From assembly GCF_055900595.2 (NCBI RefSeq), contig NZ_CM148325.1: a stretch of 64,000 bases of DNA. One strand, written 5' to 3'. The notes under the pieces were generated by a model, which did not search any database, had not been told where the DNA came from, and saw only the letters and a list, made by a program, of their open reading frames with translations. The translations under genes were made by a program, and so were the position numbers. Positions 25,504 through 52,678 of this stretch are shown piece after piece. Position 1 is the stretch's first letter, and every line of letters begins with the position of its first letter.

Positions 25504-25712
25504 TATTATTTAAATATATGGTGTAATCATTTGTATTCATAATATAAATGATTGCATCCTATTTTATTTGTTGAAACGCAAATGTAAGTGAGCGAAATCA
25601 CTGTGTTATAAATTTAAGATTATATTTAGTTTTCCTGGCGTGCCTTTCTGAATAATCTGGAATAGAATATTAGAGCTAATTTTAAGCATTATTAATGTCA
25701 CAGGGGATGTGC

Positions 25713-27887
25713 ATGCTGCGATGGAAACGCTGTATTATGCTAACATTTATCTCTGGAGCTGCTTTTGCGGCTCCAGAGATAAATGTTGAGCATAAAGAAT
25801 CGTTACCTGATTTAGGTAGTCAGGCCGCACAACAGGAAGAGCAAACTAACAAGGGTAAATCGCTAAAAGAGCGTGGTGCCGATTACGTCATTAACTCTGC
25901 CACGCAAGGGTTTGAAAACCTGACACCCGAGGCGCTGGAGTCCCAGGCCAGAAGCTATCTGCAAAGTCAAATTACCTCTACGACACAATCTTATATTGAG
26001 GATACACTCTCCCCCTACGGTAAGGTCCGAACGAATCTTTCTCTTGGTCAGGGCGGCGATCTGGATGGCAGTTCCATCGATTATTTTGTTCCCTGGTATG
26101 ATAATCAAACTACTGTTTATTTCAGCCAATTTTCTGCACAACGAAAAGAAGATCGTACGATCGGGAATATTGGGCTTGGTGTAAGACATAATTTTGATAG
26201 ATGGTTATTGGGTGGAAATATATTTTATGATTATGACTTTACCCGTGGGCATCGCCGTTTAGGTTTAGGCGCCGAAGCGTGGACTGATTATTTAAAATTC
26301 TCTGGCAACTATTATCACCCGCTTTCTGACTGGAAAGACTCCGAAGATTTCGATTTTTATGAGGAGCGCCCGGCGCGCGGCTGGGATATTCGCGCCGAAG
26401 CCTGGCTACCTGCTTACCCGCAGCTTGGCGGTAAAATCGTTTTCGAACAGTATTACGGTGATGAAGTCGCGCTTTTTGGCACCGATAATCTGGAGAATGA
26501 TCCCTTCGCCGTCACGCTGGGTGTGAAATACCAGCCCCTACCACTCATTGCCGTAGGAACGGATTTCAAAGCCGGCACTGGCGATAATACCGATCTTTCT
26601 GTTAACGCAACGCTGAACTACCAGTTTGGTGTCCCGCTCAAAGACCAGCTTGATCCTGACAAAGTGAGCGCGGCTCACTCGCTCATGGGCAGCCGTCACG
26701 ACTTTGTTGAACGTAACAACTTTATTGTTCTGGAATACAAAGAGAAAGATCCCCTCGATGTCACTTTGTGGCTGAAAGCCGATGCGACGAATGAACATCC
26801 CGAGTGCGTGATTAAAGATACGCCAGAAGCAGCCATCGGGCTGGAAAAATGTAAGTGGACCATTAACGCGCTCATTAATCATCACTACAAAATCGTTGCT
26901 GCCTCCTGGCAGGCGAAAAACAATGCTGCACGTACGCTGGTGATGCCGGTTATCAAAGAAAATACGCTTACCGAAGGGAACAACAATCACTGGAATCTGG
27001 TGCTGCCTGCCTGGCAGTACAGCTCTGATAAAGCCGACCAGGAAAAACTCAATACCTGGCGGGTACGCCTGTCGCTGGAAGATGAAAAGGGCAATCGGCA
27101 GAACTCCGGCGTGGTGGAAATTACCGTTCAGCAGGACCGTAAAATTGAGCTCATTGTTAACAACATCGCCAATGTACCGGATGAGAACAATCACAGCCAC
27201 GAAGCCAGCGCGCAAGCGGATGGTGTAGATGGTGTCGTCATGGATCTCGACGTTACCGATAGTTTTGGCGACAACACTGACCGTAACGGTAATGTCTTGC
27301 CGCAGGATAATCTCAGCCCGCAGCTGTTTGACGCCAATGATAAAAAAGTGACGCTGACAAATAAACCCTGCACCACCGAGGTGCCGTGCGTTTTTATCGC
27401 CAAACAAGATAAAGAAAAGGGGACCGTTACGCTCTCCAGTACGTTGCCCGGCACCTTCCGCTGGAAAGCGAAAGCCGCCCCTTATGATGACAGTAACTAT
27501 GTTGACGTAACGTTCCTGGGTTCTGACATCGGCGGGCTGAATGCTTTTATCTACCGCGTTGGTGCAGCTAAGCCCGTCAATCTTATCGGCAACAAAGAAC
27601 CGTTGCCTCTCAATAGCCGCTATCGCTTTGTGCTGTGGCGCGACGCTAACAAAGACGGCGTGTTCCAGCTTTCTGAGAAGCTCACTGACGATGAGATGAA
27701 ACAGTATGACTATCAGTGGGAATTCACGGGGCATAGCGTAAATGGCAATACCGGTGCGCAAACCAATACCACGAACGTCGATATAGAGATCCCGGCAACC
27801 AACAAGGAAGCGGCAGCAAAGTTTAGTGCCCAGGTAACCGATGGCGTGCAGGGATACGGTTTGCAGGTCAATTACAGCAAGAAATAG
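25713..27887 (+). CDS. sinH: intimin/invasin-family inverse autotransporter (SinH-like)
   Basis: ORF 25695..27887; ATG 25713 has SD AGGGGA and gives signal peptide MLRWKRCIMLTFISGAAFA; N-terminal beta-barrel-type region with Ig-like passenger domains; island position between yfgJ and xseA. Confidence 0.75.
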   Translation: MLRWKRCIMLTFISGAAFAAPEINVEHKESLPDLGSQAAQQEEQTNKGKSLKERGADYVINSATQGFENLTPEALESQARSYLQSQITSTTQSYIEDTLSPYGKVRTNLSLGQGGDLDGSSIDYFVPWYDNQTTVYFSQFSAQRKEDRTIGNIGLGVRHNFDRWLLGGNIFYDYDFTRGHRRLGLGAEAWTDYLKFSGNYYHPLSDWKDSEDFDFYEERPARGWDIRAEAWLPAYPQLGGKIVFEQYYGDEVALFGTDNLENDPFAVTLGVKYQPLPLIAVGTDFKAGTGDNTDLSVNATLNYQFGVPLKDQLDPDKVSAAHSLMGSRHDFVERNNFIVLEYKEKDPLDVTLWLKADATNEHPECVIKDTPEAAIGLEKCKWTINALINHHYKIVAASWQAKNNAARTLVMPVIKENTLTEGNNNHWNLVLPAWQYSSDKADQEKLNTWRVRLSLEDEKGNRQNSGVVEITVQQDRKIELIVNNIANVPDENNHSHEASAQADGVDGVVMDLDVTDSFGDNTDRNGNVLPQDNLSPQLFDANDKKVTLTNKPCTTEVPCVFIAKQDKEKGTVTLSSTLPGTFRWKAKAAPYDDSNYVDVTFLGSDIGGLNAFIYRVGAAKPVNLIGNKEPLPLNSRYRFVLWRDANKDGVFQLSEKLTDDEMKQYDYQWEFTGHSVNGNTGAQTNTTNVDIEIPATNKEAAAKFSAQVTDGVQGYGLQVNYSKK

Positions 27888-27942
27888 GGTCGGCGCCATG
27901 GCTGATCGGGCCACCGCTGAATATTAATCAAGGAGAGTGTTT

Positions 27943-28935
27943 ATGAAACCTGATATGAAACGTGGCCTGACAAAAGTCGCGCTCGCGTTGATGCTGGCTG
28001 GATACTGTGCCGTACCAGCCGCTATGGCGGAAGATGCCGCCTGGGTCGCCAGTGGAGCGACCGCTGAATTCGAAGGGACTATACCCTGGCTCTATCGCGA
28101 AGGGGGGAATGCCACGATTAACTCGGAAGATGCGGATCACATTAAAGTGACGTCTGATGGTAAAGGGACCCGCCCTGCAGGTAGCGAGACGGATAAACGC
28201 CTTTACTCAGGGGATACCATCACGCTGGGATGGGATATCGGCGATACCGAAGGGGATGTTGATGATGGTCCCGCAGGCATTGATGCGAAAACGACGGCCA
28301 CTATCAAATGGTACAGCTACAGCAATAATGCGGGTGGCGATAAAACGGAGCTGACCGCAGCGGCAGGCAAGACGAGTTATAAACTCACTGATGACGATCG
28401 TGGGCGTTATATCGGTGTTGAAATCCAGCCCATCACCCAGACCGGTAATCCCTTCGAGGGAACGTCGCTGACTCTGCTGGATATTTCAACGGCCAGCGGT
28501 GGCGGCAGCGATACGGACAATGTCGATCCCGGCCCGGTTGTGAACCAGAATCTGAAAGTTGCCATCTTCGAGAAAGGCACCACTACCAACCTTATCGGTG
28601 GTAACACGGCCATTGCGCTTAATAAAACGTATGTGGCCAAACTGTACTCGGATGAAAACCAGAACGATAAATACGACGCAGGTACGGATATGGACGTTAC
28701 CGCTAACTATGACTTTGCATGGGTCTTTAACGGTAACAGTAAACAACTTGCTGCGGCGGGCGGTATTGCTAATGCCAGCTTCGATAACAATGACATTGTT
28801 ATCCCGCAAACTAACGAAGAAGCAAGAACCAGCCTTAACGGTAGTGATCGTAATGGTAAGAGTGGTCTTGCGATCCCGGCAAACGGCGACGGCGTTCAGG
28901 GCTATACGCTGTCTATCATTTACAAACACCACTAA
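27943..28935 (+). CDS. secreted SinI-like protein sharing a C-terminal module with SinH
   Basis: ORF 27937..28935; ATG 27943 preceded by AGGAG; signal peptide; C-terminus DGVQGYTLSIIYKHH parallels the SinH C-terminus DGVQGYGLQVNYSKK. Confidence 0.7.
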   Translation: MKPDMKRGLTKVALALMLAGYCAVPAAMAEDAAWVASGATAEFEGTIPWLYREGGNATINSEDADHIKVTSDGKGTRPAGSETDKRLYSGDTITLGWDIGDTEGDVDDGPAGIDAKTTATIKWYSYSNNAGGDKTELTAAAGKTSYKLTDDDRGRYIGVEIQPITQTGNPFEGTSLTLLDISTASGGGSDTDNVDPGPVVNQNLKVAIFEKGTTTNLIGGNTAIALNKTYVAKLYSDENQNDKYDAGTDMDVTANYDFAWVFNGNSKQLAAAGGIANASFDNNDIVIPQTNEEARTSLNGSDRNGKSGLAIPANGDGVQGYTLSIIYKHH

Positions 28936-29043
28936 TGCGCACAACAGCATTCCCTTACGGGAATGCTGTTTTCGCCTGTTTTGCTTAGCGACGCGTTAAG
29001 CAAAACAGGTTGATGTTTTGTTTATCATGCTGGAGTTTTCTAC

Positions 29044-32000
29044 ATGTCGGTATGTCTGAAACCAGGGAAAATCATTATGCTTCTGGGCATGTTGGCAGCT
29101 TTTATGCTGTCTGACTTTGCACGGGCAGGGGCGGAATGGCAGACATATCCTGATTCTACAGGCGAGTTTAACGGAACCGTTCCTTTTGCCGACAGCGCCA
29201 GCGTACCCGTCTATCAGGGCAGTGTTCAGCTTAATCCTGCTGAATCTCATGATGTCGGGTTTTCTGCTAAACCGAATGAATTTAGCGTTGACGATGACGC
29301 TGCTAACCTGATTGTCGCTAATCCTCAGGACAATGAAGGCGACCAGTTTTCCACACCACCTGCGCTGCGCTGGGAAAATCAAACACCCCCTACCGTCAGC
29401 CTGGTGTGGGCCGATGCCGCCACGCCCGATGTGCCCCTTAACCCACAACCTATTGCTAACCGTAGCTTTTGCGCTCAGGGGCTGGCCGGACGCTCGCTGG
29501 TGGCCTGGCCGCAGATTGATGCGCAGCAAACCCTCCCACTGCTCTACCTGTTGACCTCGACCGGCTATCCCTATGCGGGGACGGTGGCGCTGGTGGACCA
29601 GAAAGTGACCCTGAACATCGCGCCCGCGCAGGGCGATTTAATCTCGGTGAGCGCCAGCGGTTATAACGAAACGATCGCGGCGGCAAAAACCACCGTTGGC
29701 GACACCATCACGCTCACCGTCACCACTAAAGATTGTCAGGGCAACGTCGCGGGTAATATTCCGTTTATTATCAAACGTAAAGATGCTGAAAATCGCCAGG
29801 GGGCAGTGAATAATAGTGCGCCAGTGGTACTGGATAGCACCGAGTTAACGACGACGGCTACCGAATACCATGGCACCTCTGATGCCAACGGCACGGCCAC
29901 CATCACGGTGAGCCAACCGAACGGCCCTGGCGTCAAAACGCCACTGGTGGTCAGCATTTCCGGCATTGCGCAAACCAGCGAAACCGCGGTGATTTTTACG
30001 GTGCTCACCAGCCCGGACGCGGCGCAGGCTACGATGTGGGGCCATATGGCGGAAACGGTAGAAGCGCACGGTTACACCTTCAGTCGACCAAAGCTGGCGG
30101 CAGAAGTCAGCAATGAAAGCGCCACGGTCGTCGATCACAACGAAACCTGGTCCACCTTCACCTGGAGCGGCGCAGATAACCACTGCACCGTGCTGCCCGG
30201 CATGCGCCACTTCGGCGCGCTGGCGACCGTTATCCCCACATCGGTGCAGACAGTCCTTGGCTGGCCGATGCAGGGGGATTATTACTGGTCATCGCTGGCG
30301 GGCACCACCGGGCAGCACCATGCGGCGGATGTCTCTAACCGTGGTGAAACGCAAAAGCCGGATAGCACCCCGTTTCTTGTAAGCTGCGTGGATAAACCCG
30401 CGCCTGATGTCGAGCCGAAAATCGTCCTTACGCCCGAAAACTATGATGATACGGCACAGGCGATGAAATCGCAGGTGGGCGAAGACGCCACGATGCGTCT
30501 GACGATCACCGACAATAAAAATAACGATCAACCACTGGCGTATTACTACTTCTCGCTGCATCTGGATGACGGCGTTAACCGCAAAAATCAAACCGATTCC
30601 GCCTGGGAAGCCCATCCGGTGCAGATTACTGGTGGTTCGAATTTGCAACAGGTTGATGCTCACACCTATGAAGGCATGACCGATGTCAACGGTCAGGCTT
30701 CGCTAACCCTGAGTCAGCCCGACGGCGCAGGCGTGAAAACCCATATCACGGCGAAAATGCGCAGCAATTTTACGGCTACAGATGCCAAAGACGTGATTTT
30801 TACTGTGATCACCAGCCCGGACAGCGACAAGGCGCGGATGTGGGGCCATATGCGCGGCATTGTTGTATCTGGCAGTCTGTTCAAACGCCCAGTGCTGGCG
30901 GATGAAACTGAGCATGAACTGGGATCGGTGCGGGAAAATAACGAAGACTGGGCGCTGTTCGATCAAGACACCAGTATGCAGGCTGAATGCGGCGTCGGCC
31001 ATACGCCAAGTCAGAGTGGGCTGGAAAGCCTTTTTTCAGCCCATCCCGGTAACGCGATTGGCACTGAGTATGGCTGGCCCACCGCACAACAGAACTACCT
31101 AAGCGCGGTGGAGCAAGCCACGCATTCATCGGTGAATTTGGCGAACGGAAACGTCGACAGCTACCCCGGCTTTAAGCGAAATTACCTCTCCTGTTCGGGC
31201 AATGAGATGGTCGCGAAGGTTGAAGTGAGCACCGATCACGATGTCACCCCTGGCACCAAAGCGCAGGCCAAAGTGGGAGACACCGTCGTGATGACCGTGC
31301 GTACGGTTAACGCGCTCAATAATACCCCCGTTCCCTTTACTGCCTTCACCATCACTAAAGGCATGGGGTATAACCGAGCGGGGCTGGTGAGCGGGTTTGA
31401 TGACCCGAGCAGCGGCGCAATCTCGATGAATGGCACGCAATACGGCACATCTCAGCCGTCGATGGTCTACACAGGTACGACAGATGCACAAGGCGTGGCA
31501 ACGGTCGAAATAGAGCAACCCCAGGGGGTGGGGTTAAGAACCGTGCTGAGCATTACGCCGGTCAATTCCCATCTACCAAATGCCATTAATTACAATGTTA
31601 TTTTTACCACCCCAACCAGCCCGGATGTTAGTGGGGCGCAGATGTGGGGCCATATGGATGAAACGATTACCGTTGATTCATTAACCTTTACCCGGCCTAA
31701 GCTGGCAGCAGAAATCACCAGTCCGGATGGCACATTAACGGAAAAAAACGAAGTCTGGGCGCGCGTTAGCCAGGCCAGTACGGCCATTACCAGTAAAGGC
31801 GGTTGCGGAACCAATATGCTGCCGCGCCGCTCCCAGCTCAGTGCGCTCTATGACGCTAATAACGGTAATGCGGTGCAAGCCACACACGGCTGGCCGACGC
31901 AGCGTCAGCCCTACTGGAGCAGTTCCCCCGCGGATTTAACGCCGCACAATTACACCATTGCCCTGGATAACGGCGCACAGGCCATCGGCGGCGATACGCC

Positions 32001-35000
32001 GGTTTACGTCAGTTGCCTGACGACGGCGAACAAACCTGCCAGCAGCATTACGCTGGATGTGGTTGATAACGCACAGTGGGCTGCCGGAAATAACGCGGCG
32101 AAGCTGAAAAAAGGCGAAACGCTACAGGTTAAGGTAACGGTAAAAGATGCGCAGGGTAATCCGCTCACGGATATGCCATTTAAACTGAGTCGCGGAGACG
32201 GTTATACCCGCACGGGCGAAAAACATATTGCCGGTAGTGGCGATGCGCTGGTGGCACCGGTGGTGATTAACAGTGGGCTGGCGGATGAAACGACGTTGAA
32301 CGACACCGCGGGATTTTATACTGCCATGACCGGCAGCGACGGCAGCAAAATCCTCAATATTACCCGCCCGGATACTCACGGTACCAAAACGGCGCTGACG
32401 GCGACGTTGTATTCCGATCCAACAAAAAAAGACAGCCTGGATACAATCTTTACTGTGGTCACCAGCCCGGATAGTAGCAAAGCGAAAATGTGGGGCCATA
32501 TGCCGGAAACCTTAACGGCGGCAGATGGTACCGTTTTTAAACGCCCATTGCTGATAAAGGAACTGTCGAGTCAGACCGGGCGAACAGCAATATTCGAAGA
32601 CAATGAAAACTGGGCGCTGTTTACTCAAACCCAGGCGAACTCAACCAGTAACGGCTGCGGCACTAGCTATGTTCCCACTCAGGCAGGGTTGTTGTCGTTG
32701 TTTGATAATCACGCTGGCAATACCATCAAAACCGTCCAGGGCTGGCCGGTAGTAACGCGTTATTTATCCAGCACGCCCGACAACACTGGCATGGAACAGC
32801 GTAACTACAAAGCGGTGGATCTCGGCAATGGCACCAGTGCCATGGTGTCAACGTCGACACTGGATCTACTGACCTGCCAAACCACGCCAGTCACCACGGT
32901 GAGCCAGATTCTGCTGGAAGCGGCAGATCCTGCGGCTCTGATTTATGTTGACGATACACTGAGTGTGGTTAAAGCCAAAAAAGGCGAAGAGTCGGTAGTG
33001 CGCGTCACCACGAAAGATGCGCAAGGTAACCCGGTTGGCAATGCGGCGTTTATTCTGAAACGTGCCACCAGCATAAACCGGAGGTATACATCAGCGACAG
33101 CGAGTGTAGGTGCGCTGACTGTAACCGATGCCTGGGGAAATACGCGGAGTAATTTTCAGGCAACAACTGAAATGATCTATGGCGTGACGGGGGCTGACGG
33201 GTCGACAACCTTTACGCTGAAACAGGATAACAGTACCGGGTTAAGAACCGATCTCACGGCATCACTGGATGGCGTCAGCAGCGTTCAGGCGACCCTCCCG
33301 ATGGTCTTTACCGTGGTAACCAGTCCAGATTCTCCTAAAGCGAATTTTTGGGGACACATGCCTGAAACGGTAACGGCCGCTGATGGCATGACGTATAAGC
33401 GACCATTACTGTTTAAAGAACTTACCAATAACTATGCACGCTATAGCACTTTTGAGAATGGTGAAGATTGGGCAAGATTCAGTGTGGTTCAGTCAAATAA
33501 CACCGATATGGATGGATGCGGTGCAGAGTATATGCCGACACTGGATGGCCTGCAGTCCTTGTACAGTGCCAATAGTGGTAATGCGATGAGTACAGTGCAG
33601 GGATGGCCGGTAGCTAATAGTTATCTCACCAATACACCGAGTGATACGCAACCCAGTAACCGTTATTACAATGTGGTGCAACTGAATTCCGGCGCGGTTT
33701 CTCAAATCGTGACCACCGTGCTGGCATTACAAACTTGTCGCACAACGCCTGCGGTTATTGCCAGCCAGGTGTCTCTGGAGCCTGCGGACGCCACGCAATT
33801 CGTTAAGGTTGACGATACTCTGAGCGCCATTAAGGTGAAAAAAGGCGATGAGGTTGTTATTCGCGTCACGACCAAAGATGCGCAAGGAAACCCGGTGGGT
33901 AATACGCCGTTTACACTGAAGCGTAGCAGTTCTTTCAATCGCCAGAATGCATTAGTGACGATGCAGACGGTTTCGGTGACACCCGCAGCGGCCAGTACAG
34001 TTGATACCAATGCATCGGCCACCGTGTATGGCGTGACCGGGCCAGACGGAACCACCACGATGACACTCCGACAGGATGCGTCTACTGGACTCAAAACCGA
34101 CTTTTATGCTCTGTTGAACGATACCGGCGTGTCGTCGAACACCTTGCCAGTGATCTTCACCGTCGTCACCAGCCCGGATACACCGCTGGCGGCCAACTGG
34201 GGGCATATGGCGGAAACCTTTACCAGCAGCAAGGGCGTCACCTTCAAACGGCCTTTCCTCAAAGCTGAACTTTCTGGTGGTACGGCGGTAACGACCAATA
34301 ATGAAGTCTGGTCGCGCCTGACAGCAACGGAGAAAACGGATGCCAGCAAGGCGGGTTGTGATGAGAGTTATCAACCGCTGATGACTGACATGCAGGGGTT
34401 GTATGCGGATTACCCTAACAACCAGTTGGGCACGGTGCTCGGCTTGCCGACTTCCGCCGGGTATATGTGGGCCTACGACATGATGACGGTTTCTGGCAGC
34501 AGCTGGAGCAACCAGGCATATTCGCTCGTTAATGGTCAGACAGTTCAGGCATCGTCCAGTTATACGGCGGTAGTGATGTGCCTGGTGGAACCGCATACCG
34601 TTCCGGCGATGATAGAGATCACTTCAACAGCACAGGATGCGGCAAAAACGGTCAGCAATGGTGGTCGACCGAGCGCCGTAGCGAAGAAAGGTGAGACGAT
34701 TCCGCTGACGGTGACCGTACGTGATAGCACCGGGAATCCGGTACCCTACGCCGACTTTACCCTCACGCGTGGAACGACGCTGGATCGCTCGAAAGCAACC
34801 GTTAACTCGAGTGCGGACGATCTTACCGTGAAGTCATTGATACCCGCGAACAGCGACGCTGGGCTGACGGCAAATGGGGCAAAAGTGCTCAGAACAACGG
34901 GCAGTGATGGCACTGCCACCTTTGAAGTGAGCCAGAATGCCACGACAGGTCTGGCGACACCGATAACCGTCACGCTGGCGCGCGATACAACCAAAACCGC

Positions 35001-37131
35001 CACGCTGGATGTTATCTACACGGTGATAACCAGCCCGGACTCACCGAGCGCGAAATTCTGGGGACACATGCCGGACACCTTTACCAGTTCGGCAGGCGTC
35101 ACCTTCAGACGACCGCTCCTGAAAGCCGAAGCGACTTCAGGGTCATCGATTAGCACTAACGGTAATGGTGAAGTGTGGTCGTATATGAGCAACGTTCAAA
35201 ATTTAACATCGACAGATTGTCCGCTGGAGAATCAACCGCGCAGTAATGAATTGTTGGATTTGTATAATGATCATCCCAACGGCGCGATAATGACTGACCT
35301 GGGGCTGCCGATATATGCAGGCAAGTGGTGGGCTTATGATATGGTCATGCCGGATTTATATACGTGGCAGTATCAGACTGTCAGCCTGAGCGCAGGAGAT
35401 ATCGCGAAGAGCTCGGCAAACAACGCGCTGATGCTTTGCCTGGCGAAGCCGCATCCGGCAGGCGTCAGCGTAATGTTGACGTCATCCGCAATGGATAACG
35501 CCAGAACCCTCAGTAATGGCGGGCGACCCAGCGCGTCAGTGAAAAAAGGTAACCCACTGCCAATTGTGGTGACGGTCAAAGATCGTGATGGCAACCCGCT
35601 GGCGGGAGAGGCCGTGACGCTCAGGCGTGGTTCAGCGATGAGTCGTTCAGGAGCAGGAGTGGGCACGCCGGCAAATGCAATGACGTTGACAGAATTGACA
35701 CCTGTGTCGGCGGAGTTTTCTCTGGCCGCACACGATACGCAATGGCAAGGTTTCACCGGTAGTGATGGTACGGCCACTTTCAATGTTGAACAGCCTGAGA
35801 CCATCGGCCTGGCTATCTCGTTCACCGCTATACTGGCGCGAGATGTCGCAACTACCAGCGTCATTGATGCGATCTTTACCGTCGTCACCAGCCCGGATTC
35901 CGCAATGGCGACCTACTGGGGCCATATGCCGGATACGGTAACGGCGGAAAACGGCGTGGTCTTTGAACGGCCTAAATTGTTGAAAGAGCTGCCGTCGAGC
36001 GCCGGAGTCAGTCAGGTGACGGATAACAATGAAGTGTGGCCGTTGTTTAAGGCAACGCAAAGGGAAGATAGCAGCCTCAGTCCTTGTGAAGCGGCACGTC
36101 GGCCATTGAGCGATGATTTATTATCGCTCTACGCGCGCTATCCGGGGAACACGCTGACGACTCAAATCGGCTGGTCTACGAAGTATGCATGGTGGGCACT
36201 GGATAACAAGCAGGGGAATGCCCTGGTTGTCAGTCTGAATAATGGTTTTGAGTCGTCGACGGCGAGTACGGGGTATCAGGGATGTCTGGTCAATCCCCGC
36301 GCGACCGTCTCCAGCGTCACGCTGACATCGACGGCGATAGATGCCACTACGCAGGCGGCGAAGGTAAAAAAAGGTGAAGCCGCGCCCGTCGTTGTTACCG
36401 TAAAAGACAGCGCCGGGAAGCCGGTACCTAATGTCGCTTTCACCTTAAAACGTGGTGATGCCGTGCCGCGTAACAGCGGGGCGACGTTGTATGGTGATGT
36501 TGCGGCGATGGATGATATGACGGTACAACCTGCCAGCGGGACGGTGGTAACGCTGGCTGACAGTGGGAATACGATCGACGGTGTGACAGGGGCGGACGGT
36601 ACGGCAAGTTTTGCCGTTCGTCAGGATAATACGCCAGGATATAAAACGCCGTTGACGGTGACGCTGACGGATAACGCCACAATAACGGCGACGCTGGATA
36701 CGATTTTCACCGTGCCGACCAGCCCGAATGTCGCCACGGCGTATTTCTGGGGGCATATGGCGGATACCGCCACCGTAAGTGGCAAGACGTTACATCGCCC
36801 GCTATTGAAATCAGAGTTGCCGTCAGGGGCTACAGCGGCAGTAGCGCCAACGGTGAATAATGAAATCTGGGCGCTGGCACATGTGATCGATGCTCAAAAA
36901 TGGGATATTGCAAAGCAGTGCGGTGACTTTAGTAGAGCACCGAGCTATACCGATTTACAGTCATTGCATAGCGGTTTTAGCGCGCTGGGATGGCCATCAT
37001 CGATAAGCTTCCCCTATTTCTCTACCGATCGGGCCGGTTCGTTCTATTGTGGTATGGATGAAGGGGCGGGGACACAAAACTGCGGTATTCAGGCATCCAG
37101 TACCGCAGGGTTTGCGACTTGTTTCCAGTAG
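29044..37131 (+). CDS. ratA: giant repetitive secreted/surface protein (RatA-like)
   Basis: 2695-aa ORF with N-terminal signal peptide; nine tandem ~270-aa units each carrying FTV(V/L)TSPD..(M/F)WGHM motifs. Confidence 0.8.
29650..37100 (+). repeat. nine in-frame tandem coding repeats (~0.81-0.86 kb period) within the ratA-like gene
   Basis: WGHM signature recurs near nt 30033, 30838, 31642, 32490, 33347, 34197, 35058, 35917 and 36757. Confidence 0.8.
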
Positions 37132-42030: not shown

Positions 42031-43245
42031 ATGGAGAGTGACCCGATGCTGACCGATACCAAACTGAAAAACCTCAAAGCGCGGGAAAAACTTTATAAAG
42101 TTGCAGACCGTGATGGGCTGTATGTAACCGTATCTCCCAAGGGATTGGTGACGTTTCGCTATGACTATCGAATCAATGGTCGTCGTGAAACGTTAACTAT
42201 TGGTCGCTATGGTGACGGTATTTCTCTGGCGCAGGCGCGCGAAAAATTAGTGGAAGCCAAAAAACGCGTAAATGCAGGAATATCGCCCGCTGGAGAGAAG
42301 CGTGACGGTAAAACAAAGCGAAAAGAAGAAAAGACACTCCACGATTTTACCGTCAGCTACATGAAACACACCCGGCTGGCGGACAGCACAAGGGCGATGA
42401 AGCAAAGCATTATCGACAGAGACATCACGCCAGTATGGGGGCGCAAGCTGCTGTCAGAGATAACCCCCTCTCTCCTACGTGAGTATTGCGACAAGATAAA
42501 AGCGCGTGGTGCGCCAGCGACGGCGATTCAGGTTCGCAATATCGTTAGTGCGGTATTTAAGTTCGCCGCGCTTCACGGCGACTATTACCCCAATCCTGCC
42601 GAAGAGGTTTTACCGGCTTCAATTGCGACATTCGAAGCGCGCGACAGGGCGCTCAAGCCAGAGGAGATAGGCTGGTTTTTCAATCAGCTTGAACAAACGG
42701 GTACATTACCCACCATCAAGCTGGCCATTAAATTGGTTTTATTAACGATGGTACGTAAAAGTGAACTGCTGAACGCTCCGTGGGGTGAGGTTAATTTTAA
42801 TGCCTGCCTTTGGACGATTGACGCCAGCCGGATGAAGGGATCACGGGATCATAATGTTTATCTGTCCCGGCAGGCACAGGACATTCTGATTGCCCTGAAA
42901 ATGTGCGCAGGAAGCAGTGATTGGGTTTTGCCTTCATGCAATCAGTCGTCGCATAAGACCATGTCGGCGGCGACCTTAAACCGGGTCATTAATCTTACGG
43001 TTAAGCAGGCGCAGGAACGGGGGATCAGGCTGGCGTCGTTTTCCGTTCACGATATGCGCCGAACGGCATCGACGTTATTGCATGAGGCGGGGTTTAATTC
43101 CGACTGGATAGAAAAATGCCTCGCGCACGAGGAAAGAAGCGTCAGAGCCGTTTATAACAAAGCGGAATACGCAGAGCAGCGCCGTGATATGTTGCAGCAG
43201 TGGGCGGATATGGTTGATGGGTGGATCAAGCAATACCGCCCGTAA
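42031..43245 (+). CDS. int: tyrosine-type site-specific integrase (P4-like family)
   Basis: 404-aa ORF; N-terminal LTDTKLKNLKAREKLYKVADRDGLYVTV arm-binding type sequence and C-terminal catalytic region (HDMRRTASTLL..CLAHEE..VYN); alternative start ATG 42046. Confidence 0.9.
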   Translation: MESDPMLTDTKLKNLKAREKLYKVADRDGLYVTVSPKGLVTFRYDYRINGRRETLTIGRYGDGISLAQAREKLVEAKKRVNAGISPAGEKRDGKTKRKEEKTLHDFTVSYMKHTRLADSTRAMKQSIIDRDITPVWGRKLLSEITPSLLREYCDKIKARGAPATAIQVRNIVSAVFKFAALHGDYYPNPAEEVLPASIATFEARDRALKPEEIGWFFNQLEQTGTLPTIKLAIKLVLLTMVRKSELLNAPWGEVNFNACLWTIDASRMKGSRDHNVYLSRQAQDILIALKMCAGSSDWVLPSCNQSSHKTMSAATLNRVINLTVKQAQERGIRLASFSVHDMRRTASTLLHEAGFNSDWIEKCLAHEERSVRAVYNKAEYAEQRRDMLQQWADMVDGWIKQYRP

Positions 43246-43248
43246 GTA

Positions 43249-43503
43249 CTATGCGGGGATCTTGGTACCAGAGCGCTTTGGGACTTTGGCCAGATTTTTC
43301 TGTACCGCGTTATCAATATGGTGATGGTTATTTTCCTGCCGTGCTTTGAGCCAGCGTTCCACTTCCTCTTTGTCCCACGCGACGGCGCGCTTCGTTAGCG
43401 CAAAACGTTTGGGAAACAGGCCTTTTTGCTCCAACGCATAAATCGTACTTTCAGAGAGTGGCACCATCTGTAAAAGCACGTTTTTTCTAATGGCAATTTT
43501 CAT
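43249..43503 (-). CDS. AlpA/Vis-family phage transcriptional regulator (excisionase-like)
   Basis: 84-aa ORF resembling AlpA (..LSESTIYALEQKGLFPKRFALTKRAVAWDKEEVERWL..); adjacent to and divergent from int. Confidence 0.75.
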   Translation of the reverse strand: MKIAIRKNVLLQMVPLSESTIYALEQKGLFPKRFALTKRAVAWDKEEVERWLKARQENNHHHIDNAVQKNLAKVPKRSGTKIPA

Positions 43504-44314
43504 TGTTTATTCCTTTAATCCAAAGGCACTCAGTTCTGATAACAGATCCTTTTTTACCAGCAGCGGCAGATTGCTTTGTCTCTTTACGCCAGCCGGTTAG
43601 CAAATCGTTATACATTTCGGTGTCGTAGCCGCTGATAACCACGCTTCCTTGTAACCGGGTGACGGTCTCCAGTAAGCGCAGGTGGGCACCATCGTCCATT
43701 TCGTGGCGATAATATTTGTTAGTCAGATTACGGGTGCTATGAACATACGGCGGATCGACAAAATGCAGCGTGTCGGCGGCGTCATGATCCAGAATACACT
43801 GGATGGCATCGCGGTTTTCCACCAGAACCCCTTCAAAACGCTGACCAACGGCGGCCAGATTATCGGGCATACGGCTCCAGATGTGTTGGGCCGTTCCACT
43901 GGCGCGTTTAGTGTCCAGCCGAAAGCCGGTAGTGCCTTTAGTTGCCCCGGCAGAACCGAAGCCCATCGTGGCGCGAATCACTAAACGCCTTGCCTGTTCA
44001 ACAGAATTTTTCCCATAGCGATAGGCCGAAATAAACTCGGTGCGGGAATAGGGTGTCAGGCTGCAGGCTTCAACCAGTCTTTCGCGCAGTTGTGGGGTAC
44101 GAAGAACGGCGAACAGGTTAACGACGTCGCCATCCAGATCGTTGTAAACCTCGGCGTAGCTACGTGGTTTTCTGAGCAGTACGCTGGCTGCACCGCCGAA
44201 GGGTTCCACATAGCATCTGTGGGCCGGAAAGTGGCTAATGATCCACGGAGCTAGTCGCCACTTGCCGCCGTGGTAGCGGATTGCAGGGTGCTTAATCATC
44301 CAGTTTTTCTCCAC
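43487..44314 (-). CDS. Dam-family DNA N6-adenine methyltransferase (paralog 1)
   Basis: 275-aa ORF with N-terminal YHGGK..RCYVEPFGGAAS AdoMet motif and catalytic DPPY motif. Confidence 0.8.
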   Translation of the reverse strand: MEKNWMIKHPAIRYHGGKWRLAPWIISHFPAHRCYVEPFGGAASVLLRKPRSYAEVYNDLDGDVVNLFAVLRTPQLRERLVEACSLTPYSRTEFISAYRYGKNSVEQARRLVIRATMGFGSAGATKGTTGFRLDTKRASGTAQHIWSRMPDNLAAVGQRFEGVLVENRDAIQCILDHDAADTLHFVDPPYVHSTRNLTNKYYRHEMDDGAHLRLLETVTRLQGSVVISGYDTEMYNDLLTGWRKETKQSAAAGKKGSVIRTECLWIKGINNENCH

Positions 44315-44891
44315 GCCGTTCTACGTTCAGGTGTCGCCACTGCACCGCAATCCGTTTCATCACCGCATTCCCCTCTGGGATCACCTCCTGCGGCTCCTTC
44401 ATCAACATGACCCGCCCCCGAATAACGATCAGCGCTTGTTCCAGCAGGCCATAGTCCAGATAACAGAGATCGGGAATATCCAGTTGCCACACATAGCCAT
44501 TCCATGCTGAAAGTAGCACTTGCGCGGCGGCGCGTCCGCCGCTGGTTTCTGTGAGCGCGATTTTGGCAAGTGTATTGACGGCTGCGCCATATTCCTCTGG
44601 CGTGACGCGGAGTTTCTGCTGGCTGTTATCTTCTTTTGCCAGCGTTAATAATCCAATCGGGTGTAATACGCCCAGCTCTTCCATCTTTTCTTTCAATGTT
44701 GCAGCTGTATTCCATCCAATTCTGAATTTGCGCTGCAGGCGGCTGATACTGATAATGCCTTCCGCCTCGGCCAGTTCGACCGCTTTGGGATAGAGTTCAT
44801 TGAGCCGATATTCGTAATCAGCGAAGGGCGCACCGCTATTCTCTGGCAGGCCAGAGAGTGTTTGTGAATTATTTCCAGAGGATTTCATCAT
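44292..44891 (-). CDS. protein with FtsK-gamma-like winged-helix domain
   Basis: 199-aa ORF; segment ISISRLQRKFRIGWNTAATLKEKMEELGVL closely parallels the FtsK gamma domain ([29 protein letters not shown]); overlaps downstream Dam gene by 23 bp. Confidence 0.55.
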   Translation of the reverse strand: MMKSSGNNSQTLSGLPENSGAPFADYEYRLNELYPKAVELAEAEGIISISRLQRKFRIGWNTAATLKEKMEELGVLHPIGLLTLAKEDNSQQKLRVTPEEYGAAVNTLAKIALTETSGGRAAAQVLLSAWNGYVWQLDIPDLCYLDYGLLEQALIVIRGRVMLMKEPQEVIPEGNAVMKRIAVQWRHLNVERRGEKLDD

Positions 44892-47647: not shown

Positions 47648-47896
47648 TTACGCGATTTTCTGCTTTTGCAGAAATTGCCCGCGTGTGGATAGCGGTATGT
47701 GTATCTTAGGATTCGGGCAACCGCTGGGTACTACCGTTCCCATCACGGTCTCCATCGCGATAAATGAAAACGAACAGTTAACGTTCTTGCACTGGTAATA
47801 GAGCTTACGTACCAGCGGTGACATATATTCGCTGCTGCGAATTATCGCCTTACCGTCGCAGTGTGGGCATTTCATCATGTCCGATCTCCTTACCAC
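47648..47896 (-). CDS. ogr: Ogr/Delta-family zinc-finger late-gene transcriptional activator
   Basis: 82-aa ORF (likely start MKCPHCDG at 47875) with CPHC..22 aa..CKNVNC zinc-finger spacing typical of P2 Ogr / P4 Delta. Confidence 0.8.
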   Translation of the reverse strand: MVRRSDMMKCPHCDGKAIIRSSEYMSPLVRKLYYQCKNVNCSFSFIAMETVMGTVVPSGCPNPKIHIPLSTRGQFLQKQKIA

Positions 47897-48201
47897 TTTT
47901 AACTAACTGAAACACTAACGCTTTTCGTTAACGGACTGACGAAATAGTGTGATGCCGTTCAAAAAAATGATTCTTGCCATGCTGGACATCGAACGGTTCT
48001 GCTCCAGCGCTAATGCTTACAGTTCCGCGATTTCAGCGGGGAGCAGACGCATTGCCACCGGTTTGTTCGACATCACCCCGCGGGGTGCTCGTGAGCGTAA
48101 GACGTTCTCATTTGTTTTCATGGTGGTATATTGTGGTTATTAACATTACACAATCTATAATTCCCTCAATTGAGTGAATTGTCAATGGTAATTATATCCA
48201 A

Positions 48202-48540
48202 ATGAAAGAATTTGGCATCCGTTTGAAGGAAGAACGTATCCGACTTGGCCTTGATCAAGACGGCTTTGGACAACTTGGGGGCGTGAAGAAAAACGCACAA
48301 AGTAACTATGAGAATGGACTGCGCAAGCCGGACAGTGACTATCTTGCTGGCATAGCGGCAGCGGGAGTTGATGTTCTGTATGTTCTAACAGGCAACCGCA
48401 CGCCTGTGGCTACGTTGTCCAGTAAAGAGAGTGTGTTGGTGGAGAACTATCGTTCTGCTACGCCAGAACACCAGTCCACCCTTGACACGGTTAGCGCTGC
48501 GCTTGCGCAACCGGGAGTAGGGAAAGCAGCTAAGGGATAA
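48202..48540 (+). CDS. XRE-family helix-turn-helix transcriptional regulator (Cro/CI-like)
   Basis: 112-aa ORF with classic HTH_XRE N-terminus (FGIRLKEERIRLGLDQDGFGQLGGVKKNAQSNYENGLRKPDSDYLAGIA); divergent from ogr. Confidence 0.8.
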   Translation: MKEFGIRLKEERIRLGLDQDGFGQLGGVKKNAQSNYENGLRKPDSDYLAGIAAAGVDVLYVLTGNRTPVATLSSKESVLVENYRSATPEHQSTLDTVSAALAQPGVGKAAKG

Positions 48541-48580: not shown

Positions 48581-49153
48581 ATGAAGTTGAATAATCTGGT
48601 TGCTCTTTACAGGAACATGACAGAGCAAAAATTGGATAGGGTTAAATTCCCATACAGACACAATAATTTACATTTTGATGTATTTTTCTTTATTGATGGA
48701 AAACCGTTTGAGCTTCTTTTCGGAGCATTAGGCGCTAATCTTTGCTTTCGTCTAAAAGTCGAGAAGGGATTCGTCATAAATCCTAATCTGGGAAGTGAGA
48801 CTTATAAAGAATTATGCAAGGCGCTAGGTTTGAAATATGACCCTGCCAATCCATTTAGAACAAGTAAGTTTTTTGAAGATTTTGATGGGAAAATCCCTAC
48901 ATCGGTTACTGTTAAGAATAAGGCAAAATATACTGATATTGCTGTGCATGTCAGGGATGTTGAAGAAGCAGACAGAATATATTTCTGTGGATGGAAAAAC
49001 AACAATGAAGAAAAGAGTCATGTTACTGAAGATAATTTAAAGAAAACGAAAGAGTTTTTAGGGTATCAGGCTTTTCTTGTTTGTAAGGAAAAGAATATTA
49101 GCAGTAGATGGACTGATTTAGAAAATAAAGCAAAAGATTTTTATTTACCATAG
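48581..49153 (+). CDS. hypothetical protein (cargo gene 1, no recognisable domain)
   Basis: 190-aa ORF with strong SD GGAGG; A+T-rich, Lys/Asn-rich; first gene of compact operon. Confidence 0.6.
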   Translation: MKLNNLVALYRNMTEQKLDRVKFPYRHNNLHFDVFFFIDGKPFELLFGALGANLCFRLKVEKGFVINPNLGSETYKELCKALGLKYDPANPFRTSKFFEDFDGKIPTSVTVKNKAKYTDIAVHVRDVEEADRIYFCGWKNNNEEKSHVTEDNLKKTKEFLGYQAFLVCKEKNISSRWTDLENKAKDFYLP

Positions 49154-49167
49154 GATTGTGAGGTTAT

Positions 49168-50316
49168 ATGTCTGATATTTCATTAGGGTGCGTGGTTGTT
49201 CATAGGTTGATAAAAGAGCAACATAAAGATTTCGATCACTCAAAACCATATAGTCGCCGTGATACGGTTCTTGACCGAAATAATGAAATCGTAATTAAAC
49301 TAGTGTCCAGTATAGCCGCATTGTATGGTAAAAAATCTAATAGCTCGCATTATGGTATATTTAATTTAGATGAAACACGCAGGGGGCCTTTTCCAGCGGA
49401 ATTTGATAAATATCGGAATGATACATCCAAGAAGTTAGACGATGAATTGTTTATAGGATTATCAAAAAATGTTATGCATCAGTTATATATTGAGGCAAAG
49501 GATCGACCTGCTGCATCAGGAGGATTACTTCTTTTTGCTGATTATATCAGTAAATCCGTGCGTTACTTTCTTATTGCAATGATTAAGCAAAAGGAAGGTA
49601 TAGTTATTAGTGATAAATTAGAGCCAAAGGAGTTAGAGCATCTTGATCTGGCAAAACTAAACCAGGCGGCACGAATAAACTATGATTTGTATGATAAATA
49701 TATTTCCGCTGATGAGAATGAAAGACAGGATGTTAATTATTTAAGTTTTGTTAGTCCCAGTTCTAACCAGACAACTTCAGGGTATTTCATTACTGCCTTA
49801 GGTTGTGATAAAGGTAATACATCAACTAAAGCTACGAGTAATTTAATTAATGAATCTTTTAACTTCTTCAGAAATCATCAAGAATTAAAGGATAATGCCC
49901 GTAAATTTAAAAATGAAATTATTGAGTATTTATTCGATTGTTCTGAAAATAACATTTCAGCTAAGCTCTCTGTTGTTAGTGAGATGGCGGCGAAGCATAT
50001 GGTTAATTTAGAAGATGACATTAAAGATAAATTGTCAGAAGAATTATATGCTCATTTGAATAGTGAAAGTATTCGTGTGCCTGTGGAATTTAGGGTAAGC
50101 AAATCAGTAGTTAAGAAAAACAGAAATATTAAATATACAAGTGATAATGTTAATTTTGAGTTTAAATCTAGTTTACTAGGCAATACTCTTGATAATGAGA
50201 TATGCTATAATAAGAAAACTGGACATTTAACTTTTACTCGGATTACTCCTGAGAAAAAAAGTGAAATAGCTCAATTGCTTGATGAGTTAATAAAAGAAAG
50301 AAATAGCGAAAAATAA
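49168..50316 (+). CDS. NdpA/YejK-like nucleoid-associated protein homolog (cargo gene 2)
   Basis: 382-aa ORF, SD GTGAGG; collinear similarity to E. coli YejK recalled from memory (VVVHRLIKEQH vs IALHQLIKRDE; GGLLLFADY..VRYFLIAMI vs GGxVLFCHY..VEYLLVAVL). Confidence 0.55.
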   Translation: MSDISLGCVVVHRLIKEQHKDFDHSKPYSRRDTVLDRNNEIVIKLVSSIAALYGKKSNSSHYGIFNLDETRRGPFPAEFDKYRNDTSKKLDDELFIGLSKNVMHQLYIEAKDRPAASGGLLLFADYISKSVRYFLIAMIKQKEGIVISDKLEPKELEHLDLAKLNQAARINYDLYDKYISADENERQDVNYLSFVSPSSNQTTSGYFITALGCDKGNTSTKATSNLINESFNFFRNHQELKDNARKFKNEIIEYLFDCSENNISAKLSVVSEMAAKHMVNLEDDIKDKLSEELYAHLNSESIRVPVEFRVSKSVVKKNRNIKYTSDNVNFEFKSSLLGNTLDNEICYNKKTGHLTFTRITPEKKSEIAQLLDELIKERNSEK

Positions 50317-50318
50317 GG

Positions 50319-50957
50319 TTGCTTAATATGTCATGTTTTGAAACGGTTGTTGAGCTTTTCAGATATGTAGGGCGTCCTAAATTTGATGCTATTAATAATC
50401 GTTTTTCAGCAACTATTTCTTATGATGCTCATATATATGAACTCTTAGTTTCTTTGCAACCTCATACAGCGTGGGGAGAAATTGAAGAGATTGTCATTGA
50501 TGATGTGGATATAGATGTTGATGATAGCCTTCCCGCTAAAGGAACATCAATAACACTGACAATCTCTATATCAACTGGAGCTAGTGAGTCATTTTTTATC
50601 GATATTAAAGATCTAATTCAAAAGTCTCCGATGTTAAATAGAGGTATTTTAAGAAAGTCTTTTTACTTGGTTGAGGAAGATTTTTATTTTAATGAAGGAA
50701 TGGTTGAGGGATTAGCAAAAATACCAGAACTATCTGTTTTAAAGAATCTTTGTGATTTTATTTTATGTCTATCAAAAGTTGCACACTACAGCAATAGTAA
50801 AAGTGATGATGTATGCCATAAGTTAGTTTTCTTGAAAAATACTAATGCTAAGTCATTACCTTTAATTATTGAAACTAATGTTGATTATTCACTTCTTTTA
50901 ACAGGTATTAAGGATTTAAAAATCATCGAATCTTTTTCTGATGAAAAAAAGCTATAA
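50319..50957 (+). CDS. hypothetical protein (cargo gene 3)
   Basis: 212-aa ORF beginning 2 bp after the preceding stop; acidic, no recognisable domain. Confidence 0.55.
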   Translation: MLNMSCFETVVELFRYVGRPKFDAINNRFSATISYDAHIYELLVSLQPHTAWGEIEEIVIDDVDIDVDDSLPAKGTSITLTISISTGASESFFIDIKDLIQKSPMLNRGILRKSFYLVEEDFYFNEGMVEGLAKIPELSVLKNLCDFILCLSKVAHYSNSKSDDVCHKLVFLKNTNAKSLPLIIETNVDYSLLLTGIKDLKIIESFSDEKKL

Positions 50958-51001
50958 CGGATGATAATTATTTTGAGCGAAAAGGGATTTTCATTAATAC
51001 G

Positions 51002-51583
51002 GTGGTCGATTTTCTTGAATCAATCGATGTAAAGAAACAGTTTCATTTTTTATTCTGTGAGTGGGATGAATTTCTAAAACTATACCATAATAACCTCGGT
51101 GTATATCTTAGTGGTTTTTCATTTCATAAAGTAAGAAAGGAAGTGGCAGAGGCAGAAGCTAATTTAGCTGAGCGTTTTTCAAAAATAATGTCAGACATGA
51201 TAGCTAAGCTTTTAGGTATTCCTGTTTCTTTGGTTGCTACTTTTGGCATGATAAAATTAAATACCCTGCCGGAAATGTTAGTGGTTTTTTTAGGTGTATT
51301 GCTCACGTCGATAATTATGTTTTTTATTGTAAGAAGTCAATACACACAGTTTAGGATGATTTGTGATGCTAAAGATATTATATTTTCCCCATTAGTGAAA
51401 AAATCTGTAGGTTATACAGAAGATTTGAAAAAATTAGTATGCAATGCAAAGGATAATTTAGACAAAAATCAGGTCATGTTAAATCGTTACCTTCTTTTCT
51501 TTCAATGCTTATGCTGGATTCCGACAGCCTTAGGTGGTGGAATGATCTTAATGGCTATTATGGTTCATTTAGGATTACTATAA
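51002..51583 (+). CDS. predicted membrane protein (cargo gene 4)
   Basis: 193-aa ORF with apparent GTG start; hydrophobic segments (IPVSLVATFGMIKL.., MLVVFLGVLLTSIIMFFIV, ..CWIPTALGGGMILMAIMVHLGLL); 3' end overlaps convergent gene D by 6 bp; start codon uncertain. Confidence 0.45.
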   Translation: MVDFLESIDVKKQFHFLFCEWDEFLKLYHNNLGVYLSGFSFHKVRKEVAEAEANLAERFSKIMSDMIAKLLGIPVSLVATFGMIKLNTLPEMLVVFLGVLLTSIIMFFIVRSQYTQFRMICDAKDIIFSPLVKKSVGYTEDLKKLVCNAKDNLDKNQVMLNRYLLFFQCLCWIPTALGGGMILMAIMVHLGLL

Positions 51584-52678
51584 ACTTAATTCCATTTCTA
51601 ATGCGGTGACATAACCAGTACCGCCATCCAACGTATGCACGCACCGCGTAATCACCCACGCGGTGCCATCAATTTCCGCCTTAAACCCCTTCACCTGCAG
51701 CGGTAATTCCGGGAACAAATCGGGCCGTCCACGCGCAAGATTCAGGCTGAACGTTGCCGCGCCGCGCTGTAGCTGCTCCCACGCGCTTTTTGCCGCTCTG
51801 TAGGCGTTATTTTTGTTGGCATAGGTGTGGCGCAGCACCTTGATATTTCCCTCTTCGCCAACCATCACGTTATCAGCATTGAATGAGGCGTCTGACGGCG
51901 GAGATTCTGTTGGTTGCGTTTGTGGACGGTTTTTCCGTGTCTTGCGCTTCATGTCAGTGGACTGCTTTTTTGCCTGCCGTGTATCCAGCCAGTAGGCCGT
52001 CACACCGGTATACGCCTCCCTGTCCGCGATGCTGAACCGGTGGCTGTCGCCGTCCTCGCGGGTAATGGTTGCGACCGGCAGCGGTTTGCCGCTGGCACTT
52101 TTACCGGAACCTGTCGGCATTAGCAGCAGAGCATCATTTTTCACGCAGGCGATAGCGCCGTGCAGTTGCGCCAGCCGGGTCAGGAAGGAGGCATCGGATT
52201 CGTTAGTCTGGTCAACGTGCTCAATGGCGATCCCAGCCAGCTCGCCGCTGACGGTTGATTCCAGCTTATGACGCGCCGCCACGGTTTGCACAATCGCGCC
52301 CAGCGTCGCATCATGGTAGCTCTGTTCCCGTTTAACGTTCAGCGAATCGCGGAAATCGGCGCTGCGGGCGCGGAGGCTGAGTACGTCCGGTGCGCCGCTG
52401 TGCTCCAGTTCGTCCACTGTGAAGACATTCTGGTGCATCACGCCGTCACCCTTCCAGCCTAGAGAAACCGTTAGCTTTTCGCCCTTTGCCGGAAACGCCA
52501 GCAGGCCGTCGCTGTCGTCCAGTTCGAGCTGCAGTTCGTCGGCCTCAAAGCCCCGGTTGTCGGTGATACGCAGGCTGATTAAGCGGTTGTCCAGATTCCG
52601 CGTAATGTCCTTACCGTTCAGCACCACGCTGTACTCCGGCTGCGGCTGGGCGTTTAAGAGTGCGTTTAACATCGTCAT
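51578..52678 (-). CDS. P2 gpD-like tail protein (late control D)
   Basis: 366-aa ORF, MTMLNALLNAQPQPEYSVVLNGKDITRNLDNRLISLRITDN.. typical of gpD; position after U. Confidence 0.85.
   Translation of the reverse strand: MTMLNALLNAQPQPEYSVVLNGKDITRNLDNRLISLRITDNRGFEADELQLELDDSDGLLAFPAKGEKLTVSLGWKGDGVMHQNVFTVDELEHSGAPDVLSLRARSADFRDSLNVKREQSYHDATLGAIVQTVAARHKLESTVSGELAGIAIEHVDQTNESDASFLTRLAQLHGAIACVKNDALLLMPTGSGKSASGKPLPVATITREDGDSHRFSIADREAYTGVTAYWLDTRQAKKQSTDMKRKTRKNRPQTQPTESPPSDASFNADNVMVGEEGNIKVLRHTYANKNNAYRAAKSAWEQLQRGAATFSLNLARGRPDLFPELPLQVKGFKAEIDGTAWVITRCVHTLDGGTGYVTALEMELSL

Follow-up and report, generated by a model that had tools for sequence, protein, structure and literature searches.

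What is a homologue of the nucleoid-associated protein (NAP) YejK doing among the cargo genes of a prophage, and with which neighbours does it work? The question is raised by an NdpA-like gene in a 64,000-nt stretch of contig NZ_CM148325.1 (NCBI RefSeq assembly GCF_055900595.2), which we call the window. We think it likely that this gene is the first of a prophage-borne two-gene module, resembling DS-1 and type II PANGU, in which a NAP sensor is paired with a membrane effector of abortive infection, and that the effector has been inactivated in this lineage. The two-gene kind is already known as anti-phage from DS-1 and type II PANGU, and the clade found in the window is a distinct addition to it. 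The answer is therefore mostly ordinary, namely a known kind of system that is probably inactive in this genome. The features on which the argument turns are the following.

49168..50316, + strand: NdpA/YejK-family (NA37) paralogue, 382 aa; ATG start; Pfam NA37
50328..50957, + strand: 5' fragment of the partner gene, 209 aa, acidic N-terminal alpha/beta domain; ATG at 50328, alternative TTG at 50319; premature TAA from a frameshift
50944..50950, + strand: A7 homopolymer, site of a one-base deletion (A8 when intact), from the sequence as read and its alignment with Escherichia coli GMF054
50951..51583, + strand: 3' fragment of the partner gene, long helices and hydrophobic C-terminal segments, in the shifted frame; open reading frame (ORF) from GTG 51002, 193 aa

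The NdpA-like protein is a divergent NA37 paralogue

An initial annotation, made by eye, had aligned the 382-aa product with YejK along its length and proposed a profile search and a structural comparison as checks. The Pfam NA37 model (PF04245) matches residues 10-361 over model positions 1-322 of 325 (independent E-value 6.1e-45, 154.5 bits), a significant and nearly complete match that bears the alignment out. The phage family phrog_3767, 'nucleoid associated protein', matches at E=4e-63, and the comparison with YejK likewise agreed, since the solved YejK structure 9be2 is matched at E=1.4e-9. Judged by these profiles, the protein is a genuine NA37-family member whose resemblance to YejK goes far beyond chance. 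Non-specific DNA binding of NA37 proteins is established for YejK.

Is it then simply YejK? The NCBIfam YejK model NF001557 scores 108.1 bits over residues 6-368 and has an equivalog cut-off of 341 bits. Because its score lies well under that cut-off, we classify the protein, on its sequence, as a paralogue that has diverged from YejK, the housekeeping protein. The two belong to the same Pfam family and can be aligned over their full length, but the prophage protein has 382 residues against 334 positions in the YejK model and 338 residues in the solved YejK chain. Unlike chromosomal yejK, the gene belongs to a prophage island of low GC content and always has an effector gene as its partner, two properties that also argue against its being the housekeeping NAP.

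The NdpA-like gene and its partner are inherited as a unit

We compiled loci of the gene in two ways. A pattern scan that took a single genome for each species yielded 35 loci, most of them in Gamma- or Betaproteobacteria and a few in metagenome-assembled genomes (MAGs) assigned to other phyla; look-ups of two homologues contributed lambdoid prophages from Salmonella and E. coli. Wherever the locus extends far enough (40 of 40), a gene for a partner of about 410 aa comes directly after the NdpA-like gene, on the same strand. One further locus, in a Pantoea insect symbiont, holds a decayed pair, and another contig ends at the gene junction. Over 33 non-redundant pairs, the intergenic gap ranges from -26 to +39 nt and the pairwise divergences of the two proteins correlate with r=0.91. 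The NdpA-like gene and its partner are inherited as a unit, and they probably evolve as one.

The architecture of the partner is equally constant. In all homologues the N-terminal ~280 aa are acidic, with a net charge between -7 and -22, and two or three hydrophobic segments come after them. The family is a large one, so that the locus adds to the NAP-plus-membrane-effector type a clade of about 1,285 partner clusters (1,285 at 50% identity, E<=1e-3). The carriers of this clade include P2-like, lambdoid and other phages: we found the pair in the P2-like prophage of the window, in the Salmonella and E. coli lambdoid prophages, on IMG/VR contigs and in the sequenced virus Klebsiella phage P7641, where the two proteins are found at 43% and 33.5% identity and are annotated as hypothetical. 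Klebsiella phage P7641 surfaced by tblastn only; megablast, run with the island on 50,697 phage records, gave no match.

Two groups of loci stand somewhat apart. In Pantoea sp. Eser, the symbiont of Euschistus servus (locus L027, 6001-8277), the NdpA-like gene and the partner are each in several ORF fragments, a second and independent decay of the pair. Three MAGs, assigned to Candidatus Moraniibacteriota (L016), Riflebacteria (L028) and Lewinella (L041), carry the pair at 33-43% identity to the E. coli protein; these occurrences reflect either wide horizontal transfer or binning contamination.

The partner gene is broken by a frameshift in this lineage

The window encodes the partner as two ORFs. 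Both match one 412-residue family, phrog_5023, at positions 9-198 and 224-397 (E=5.6e-31 for the 3' half). The same island is present in E. coli GMF054 at 99.4% identity, and there the partner is a single intact ORF of 418 aa; the intact allele lies at NZ_CM183924.1:1340728-1343144. The sole length difference between the two islands is one missing A (A7 in the window, A8 in GMF054), and the DNA downstream of this indel is identical. The two ORFs are one gene broken by a frameshift. Across the four genes of the island, 15 synonymous and 3 non-synonymous substitutions separate the window from the intact lineage, and A8 and A7 make up a natural pair of intact and broken effector alleles.

The same split into 209 + 193 aa was present in all 23 contigs that we read with an identical NdpA-like protein. 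The 193-aa half is found on 377 contigs and the intact 418-aa protein on 178, and UniProt/AFDB lists each half as an E. coli entry of its own. Sequencing error is ruled out as the cause of the frameshift by the 23 split contigs together with these separate entries. Frequent phase variation is unsupported, as the exact NdpA variant of the window is always accompanied by the split allele in the contigs read.

The position of the break is informative. In an AlphaFold2 model of the partner (predicted local distance difference test score, pLDDT, 91.9), residues 1 to ~211 form an alpha/beta domain that is followed by long helices, and the break at residue ~209 falls at the junction between the two. 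The isoelectric point of the intact E. coli partner is 4.8 in the N part (residues 1-211) versus 9.2 in the C part, and its hydrophobic segments lie at about 294-342 and 392-421. Pfam has no family that matches the intact partner even at E<=10, and a Foldseek search against AFDB50 returned uncharacterised homologues only. Separate translation of the C-terminal half from the GTG at 51002 seems doubtful: by eye, this codon has a purine-rich stretch ~15 nt upstream, which would be beyond the usual Shine-Dalgarno distance. Because the partner is split at the A7 tract, the system in this genome is probably inactive. It seems doubtful that the frameshifted allele has instead been retained as a re-purposed pair of NAP and decoy, or that the A tract serves as an ON/OFF switch for a costly abortive-infection effector; the spread of that allele over the contigs and the mostly synonymous nature of the few substitutions would speak for such a reading.

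Both proteins are distant homologues of the DS-1 defence proteins

We compared the pair with characterised systems that join a NAP to a second protein. DS-1, which is system D390 of DefensePredictor (Science 2026, PMC13092281), is an E. coli pair consisting of a 391-aa NA37 protein, DS-1A (WP_000355468.1), and a 404-aa hypothetical protein, DS-1B (WP_000150292.1). It was cloned and its defence was replicated; in the first screen the -log efficiency of plating was 7.6 for Bas1, 2.7 for Bas26 and 1.7 for T3 and Bas3 (PMC13092281). Among the novel defence genes predicted in the same study is one for a nucleoid-associated protein of E. coli with 382 aa, WP_120130707.1 (PMC13092281); this entry is tied to the ORF of the window by length and name alone.

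DS-1 and the window pair have the same gene order, with an NA37/YejK protein followed in one operon by a homologous partner of ~400 aa, and both come from E. coli accessory DNA. By BLASTP, the NdpA-like protein is 26% identical to DS-1A over 214 aa and the partner is 26% identical to DS-1B over 68 colinear aa. Profiles built from the window clade are more sensitive: they score DS-1A at 68.9 bits and DS-1B at 83.5 bits over model positions 70-409, and DS-1B remains significant on the partner profile even for a library of 1.8e9 proteins (E=1.4e-18). These alignments indicate a distant homology with DS-1A and DS-1B that covers nearly the full length of both proteins. The predicted transmembrane (TM) segments are stronger in the window clade than in DS-1B, and the window copy is frameshifted, unlike DS-1. 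PADLOC-DB 2023 gave no match for the NdpA-like protein (E<=1) or for either half of the partner because that database predates DS-1 and PANGU.

The pair has the layout of type II PANGU

Sensing of phage-induced genome damage by means of a NAP was published only in 2026. According to the passages of the PANGU preprint on which we draw here, a YejK-like NAP is bound to the nucleoid and is freed when the phage degrades the genome (T4 EndoII); the freed NAP then binds the acidic 'DMK' domain of the effector and so activates it (bioRxiv 10.64898/2026.04.06.716658). The same passages report that the NAP comes off the nucleoid upon T4 infection, that escape mutants map to denA, that both genes are needed while neither is toxic alone, and that the outcome is abortive infection (10.64898/2026.04.06.716658). 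In type II PANGU the effector, Pag2B, is described there as an N-terminal DMK domain joined to a C-terminal TM domain (10.64898/2026.04.06.716658).

As far as those passages describe it, type II PANGU shares with the window pair a YejK-like NAP and a downstream protein with an acidic N-terminus and a TM C-terminus, encoded bicistronically in E. coli. The NdpA-like gene stops at 50316 and the partner ATG is at 50328, within the <40 bp that defines a bicistronic neighbour in type II PANGU. The partner agrees with the type II effector in its acidic N-terminus and hydrophobic C-terminal segments. Sequences or accessions of Pag2A and Pag2B were not found in the text of the preprint (10.64898/2026.04.06.716658). 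Type I PANGU, in the passages cited, pairs the NAP Pag1A with the GRel toxSAS protein Pag1B and follows the same NAP sensing logic as that proposed for the window pair, but its effector is a nucleotide pyrophosphokinase and not a membrane protein.

The initial annotation had pointed to a different precedent, in which an NdpA-like protein is the antitoxin of the PsyrTA module. According to Millman et al., the PsyrA antitoxin is DprA-like and the toxin carries a phosphoribosyltransferase (PRTase) domain. The window does not have a DprA-like PsyrA next to a PsyrT, no helicase or PRTase gene lies near the NdpA-like gene among the window ORFs, and the protein matches no PADLOC model at E<=1. We therefore abandon this comparison. 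The accompanying remark that no helicase is adjacent was correct, the neighbours being the DUF6037 gene and the membrane partner. PsyrTA (RqlHI) and the window pair share only a two-gene module with a DNA-binding protein.

A more general version of that idea is that the pair is a toxin-antitoxin (TA) or addiction module, in which a membrane toxin would be held in check by a DNA-binding NdpA-like antitoxin and which would stabilise the prophage rather than sense infection. A tightly coupled operon of two genes, the second of them membrane-active, would suit such a module, and a frameshift in the putative toxin with the NAP kept is a pattern often seen in decaying TA loci. However, the closest characterised systems are non-toxic singly and need both genes for defence, the placing of the putative antitoxin first and the sizes of the proteins are atypical of small type II TA pairs, and no TA model was matched in PADLOC or NCBIfam. 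We consider a TA function very unlikely.

A proposed mechanism and the points against it

Three observations lead us to prefer a sensor-effector module of the DS-1/type II PANGU kind: homology to DS-1A and DS-1B, operonic linkage with co-divergence across Proteobacteria and phages, and the acidic-N/hydrophobic-C architecture of the partner. We propose that the NdpA-like protein is the sensor subunit and the counterpart of DS-1A and Pag2A. The NA37 protein would sit on the host nucleoid and would be released when an infecting phage degrades the host DNA. Once released, it could bind the acidic N-terminal domain of the partner, a proposed DNA mimic, whereupon the hydrophobic C-terminal helices of the partner would damage the membrane and the infection would be aborted. 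Release of the NAP, its binding to the partner and membrane killing are carried over, by analogy, from the two 2026 studies. The frameshifted allele of the window would leave an orphan NAP and a soluble acidic fragment.

Several points weigh against this proposal. NCBIfam release 20 contains models for both DS-1 proteins, NF053868 (DS1_1, 'nucleoid-associated anti-phage protein') and NF053869 (DS1_2, 'anti-phage protein'), with equivalog cut-offs of 330 and 315 bits, respectively. The NdpA-like protein reaches 80.8 bits with DS1_1, and the C-terminal half of the partner reaches 48.5 bits with DS1_2 (E=6.8e-13); both scores are far under the cut-offs, a significant homology that stays short of equivalog level. 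DS-1A carries an N-terminal zinc-ribbon extension (a NinF-like match in the table of its authors) that the window protein does not have, and no strong TM segment emerged from a crude hydropathy scan of DS-1B. To type II PANGU (Pag2A/Pag2B), the pair would be related by architecture only. It is from net charge, and nothing else, that the partner would be a DNA mimic. Defence by the window clade would be an extrapolation from DS-1, whose protection was shown, and the frameshifted effector permits no inference on activity in this genome.

The pair lies in a cargo hotspot of a P2-like prophage

The genes around the pair are the following.

42031-43245: prophage integrase, adjoining guaA (after guaA)
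47648..47896, - strand: Ogr/Delta-like late transcription activator, left flank of the hotspot (NCBIfam NF007241, 1.2e-14; Ogr/Delta annotation in sibling prophages)
48202..48540, + strand: Xre-type helix-turn-helix (HTH) gene, 112 aa, constant left border of the ogr-gpD hotspot (phrog_8, 3e-12; RstR-family, 1.4e-5)
48581..49153, + strand: DUF6037 gene, 190 aa, named 'RloE protein' in some sources, 14 nt upstream of the NdpA-like gene
51578..52678, - strand: P2 gpD (late control D), right flank of the hotspot (annotation of the GMF054 orthologue; Pfam Phage_GPD in loci L045 and L091)

The initial annotation had taken the NdpA-like gene for prophage cargo, and its setting agrees: a low-GC island lies between ogr and gpD of a P2-like prophage whose integrase is near guaA. 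The island measures 3.4 kb at 30-33% GC, in surroundings of ~52-59% GC, and holds four genes on the same strand, namely the Xre-type HTH gene, the DUF6037 gene, the NdpA-like gene and the partner (two ORFs here). The 3' ends of gpD and the effector gene overlap by 6 nt, and the gpD, gpU and tape-measure genes run from 51578 onward on the - strand.

This moron-like position, antisense to phage genes and repeated in several prophage types, could also point to a role in lysogenic conversion or superinfection exclusion. An acidic membrane protein and a DNA-binding protein might together trap or block incoming DNA, or the NAP might silence or organise prophage and host DNA, in either case without abortive infection. 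The non-specific DNA binding known from YejK, along with a partner that is a predicted membrane protein, would be in keeping with such a role. Against it, the validated relatives act from plasmids on unrelated lytic phages, PANGU shows abortive-infection kinetics and denA escape mutants, and the pair also occurs at loci without an established prophage context. We hold such a role to be quite improbable, slightly more so than a TA function, and prefer the sensor-effector module.

The hotspot houses more than one kind of cargo. The HTH gene is shared with prophages of E. coli CEC15 and L725 at 98.6% DNA identity (window 48100-48513), and this identity ends near 48513, within the 3' end of the HTH gene. 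Behind it, at the same ogr-gpD hotspot, CEC15 and L725 (loci L043 and L044, 6103-8556) carry a type I PANGU-like cassette of a 362-aa NAP and a RelA_SpoT protein; this NAP is only ~20% identical to the NdpA-like protein of the window. A third sibling, a Logan contig (L050, 4622-8414), has DUF6037, ThsB-TIR, caspase, PDC-M11A and ASCH genes after an HTH ORF of equal length. The HTH gene thus heads three different cargos across sibling prophages, and whole cassettes are swapped behind it at the ogr-gpD hotspot. Type I-like and type II-like NAP systems, as well as a TIR/caspase cassette, alternate at this one P2-like hotspot while the HTH gene in front of them stays the same.

The HTH gene may regulate the cargo. 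In two Salinicola loci (L018, 5219-5896; L042, 3227-3589), a protein related to the HTH protein of the window is encoded upstream of the NdpA-like pair, directly upstream in L018. These loci hint that an Xre-type regulator is sometimes genuinely linked to the pair.

DUF6037 and the HTH gene are separable from the pair

A new arrangement of three partners had been suggested for the NdpA-like gene. Our loci do not sustain it: the conserved unit is the pair of NdpA-like gene and partner described above, DUF6037 accompanies a minority of pairs, and the HTH gene is the border of the hotspot. Since cassettes are swapped next to a constant HTH gene, the three partners are neighbours in a hotspot and do not make up an obligate system.

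Could the arrangement nevertheless be an obligate system of three or four components (HTH, DUF6037, NdpA-like and membrane proteins), in which the NAP pair would depend on DUF6037 as its sensor or modulator? DUF6037 lies just 14 nt from the NdpA-like gene. It occurs with the pair in the P2-like lineage of the window and recurs as a DUF6037-NAP-partner triplet in Salmonella lambdoid prophages (38-47% protein identity) and three IMG/VR contigs. A NAP system is present at five of the 39 viral loci of DUF6037, and in two of these DUF6037 stands directly before type I PANGU-like NAP + toxSAS pairs. On the other hand, DUF6037 is absent from all 35 genome loci of the pair, from the E. coli lambdoid version and from Klebsiella phage P7641. 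The remaining 34 of the 39 viral DUF6037 loci have no NAP system; in them DUF6037 is either a solitary antisense moron or is placed before PDC-S20, PD-Lambda-5 or AbiP2. It also precedes the TIR/caspase/PDC-M11A cassette of L050 and stands alone in Yersinia and Ralstonia prophages. Moreover, DS-1 and PANGU function as two-gene constructs, and the PANGU passages cited above make no mention of DUF6037 or HTH neighbours. An obligate system of this composition is unlikely.

DUF6037 and the HTH gene are separable hotspot neighbours and not core components of the NAP-partner module. DUF6037 is structurally novel and recurs at the head of prophage defence cargo. We think it improbable that the Xre-type HTH gene and DUF6037 ('RloE') together serve interchangeable defence cargos in prophage hotspots, two unrelated NAP systems among them, as a common front end for regulation or sensing.

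Other variable regions of the window

The early region of the prophage encodes a Dam-family adenine methyltransferase-like protein of 274 aa, with a partial match to the dam model (43487-44314, - strand), beside a 199-aa ORF (44292-44891, - strand). This place is a second variable spot of the prophage, because the sibling prophage of GMF054 has a 125-aa DUF7673 gene alone there.

On the other side of guaA, positions 25695-37131 (+ strand) hold sinH, encoding an intimin-like inverse autotransporter (1474 bits), with a sinI-family partner and a 2695-aa RatA-like adhesin. This island precedes two long ORFs ahead of guaA, and the 25-27 kb region has a lower GC content, at 42-48%.

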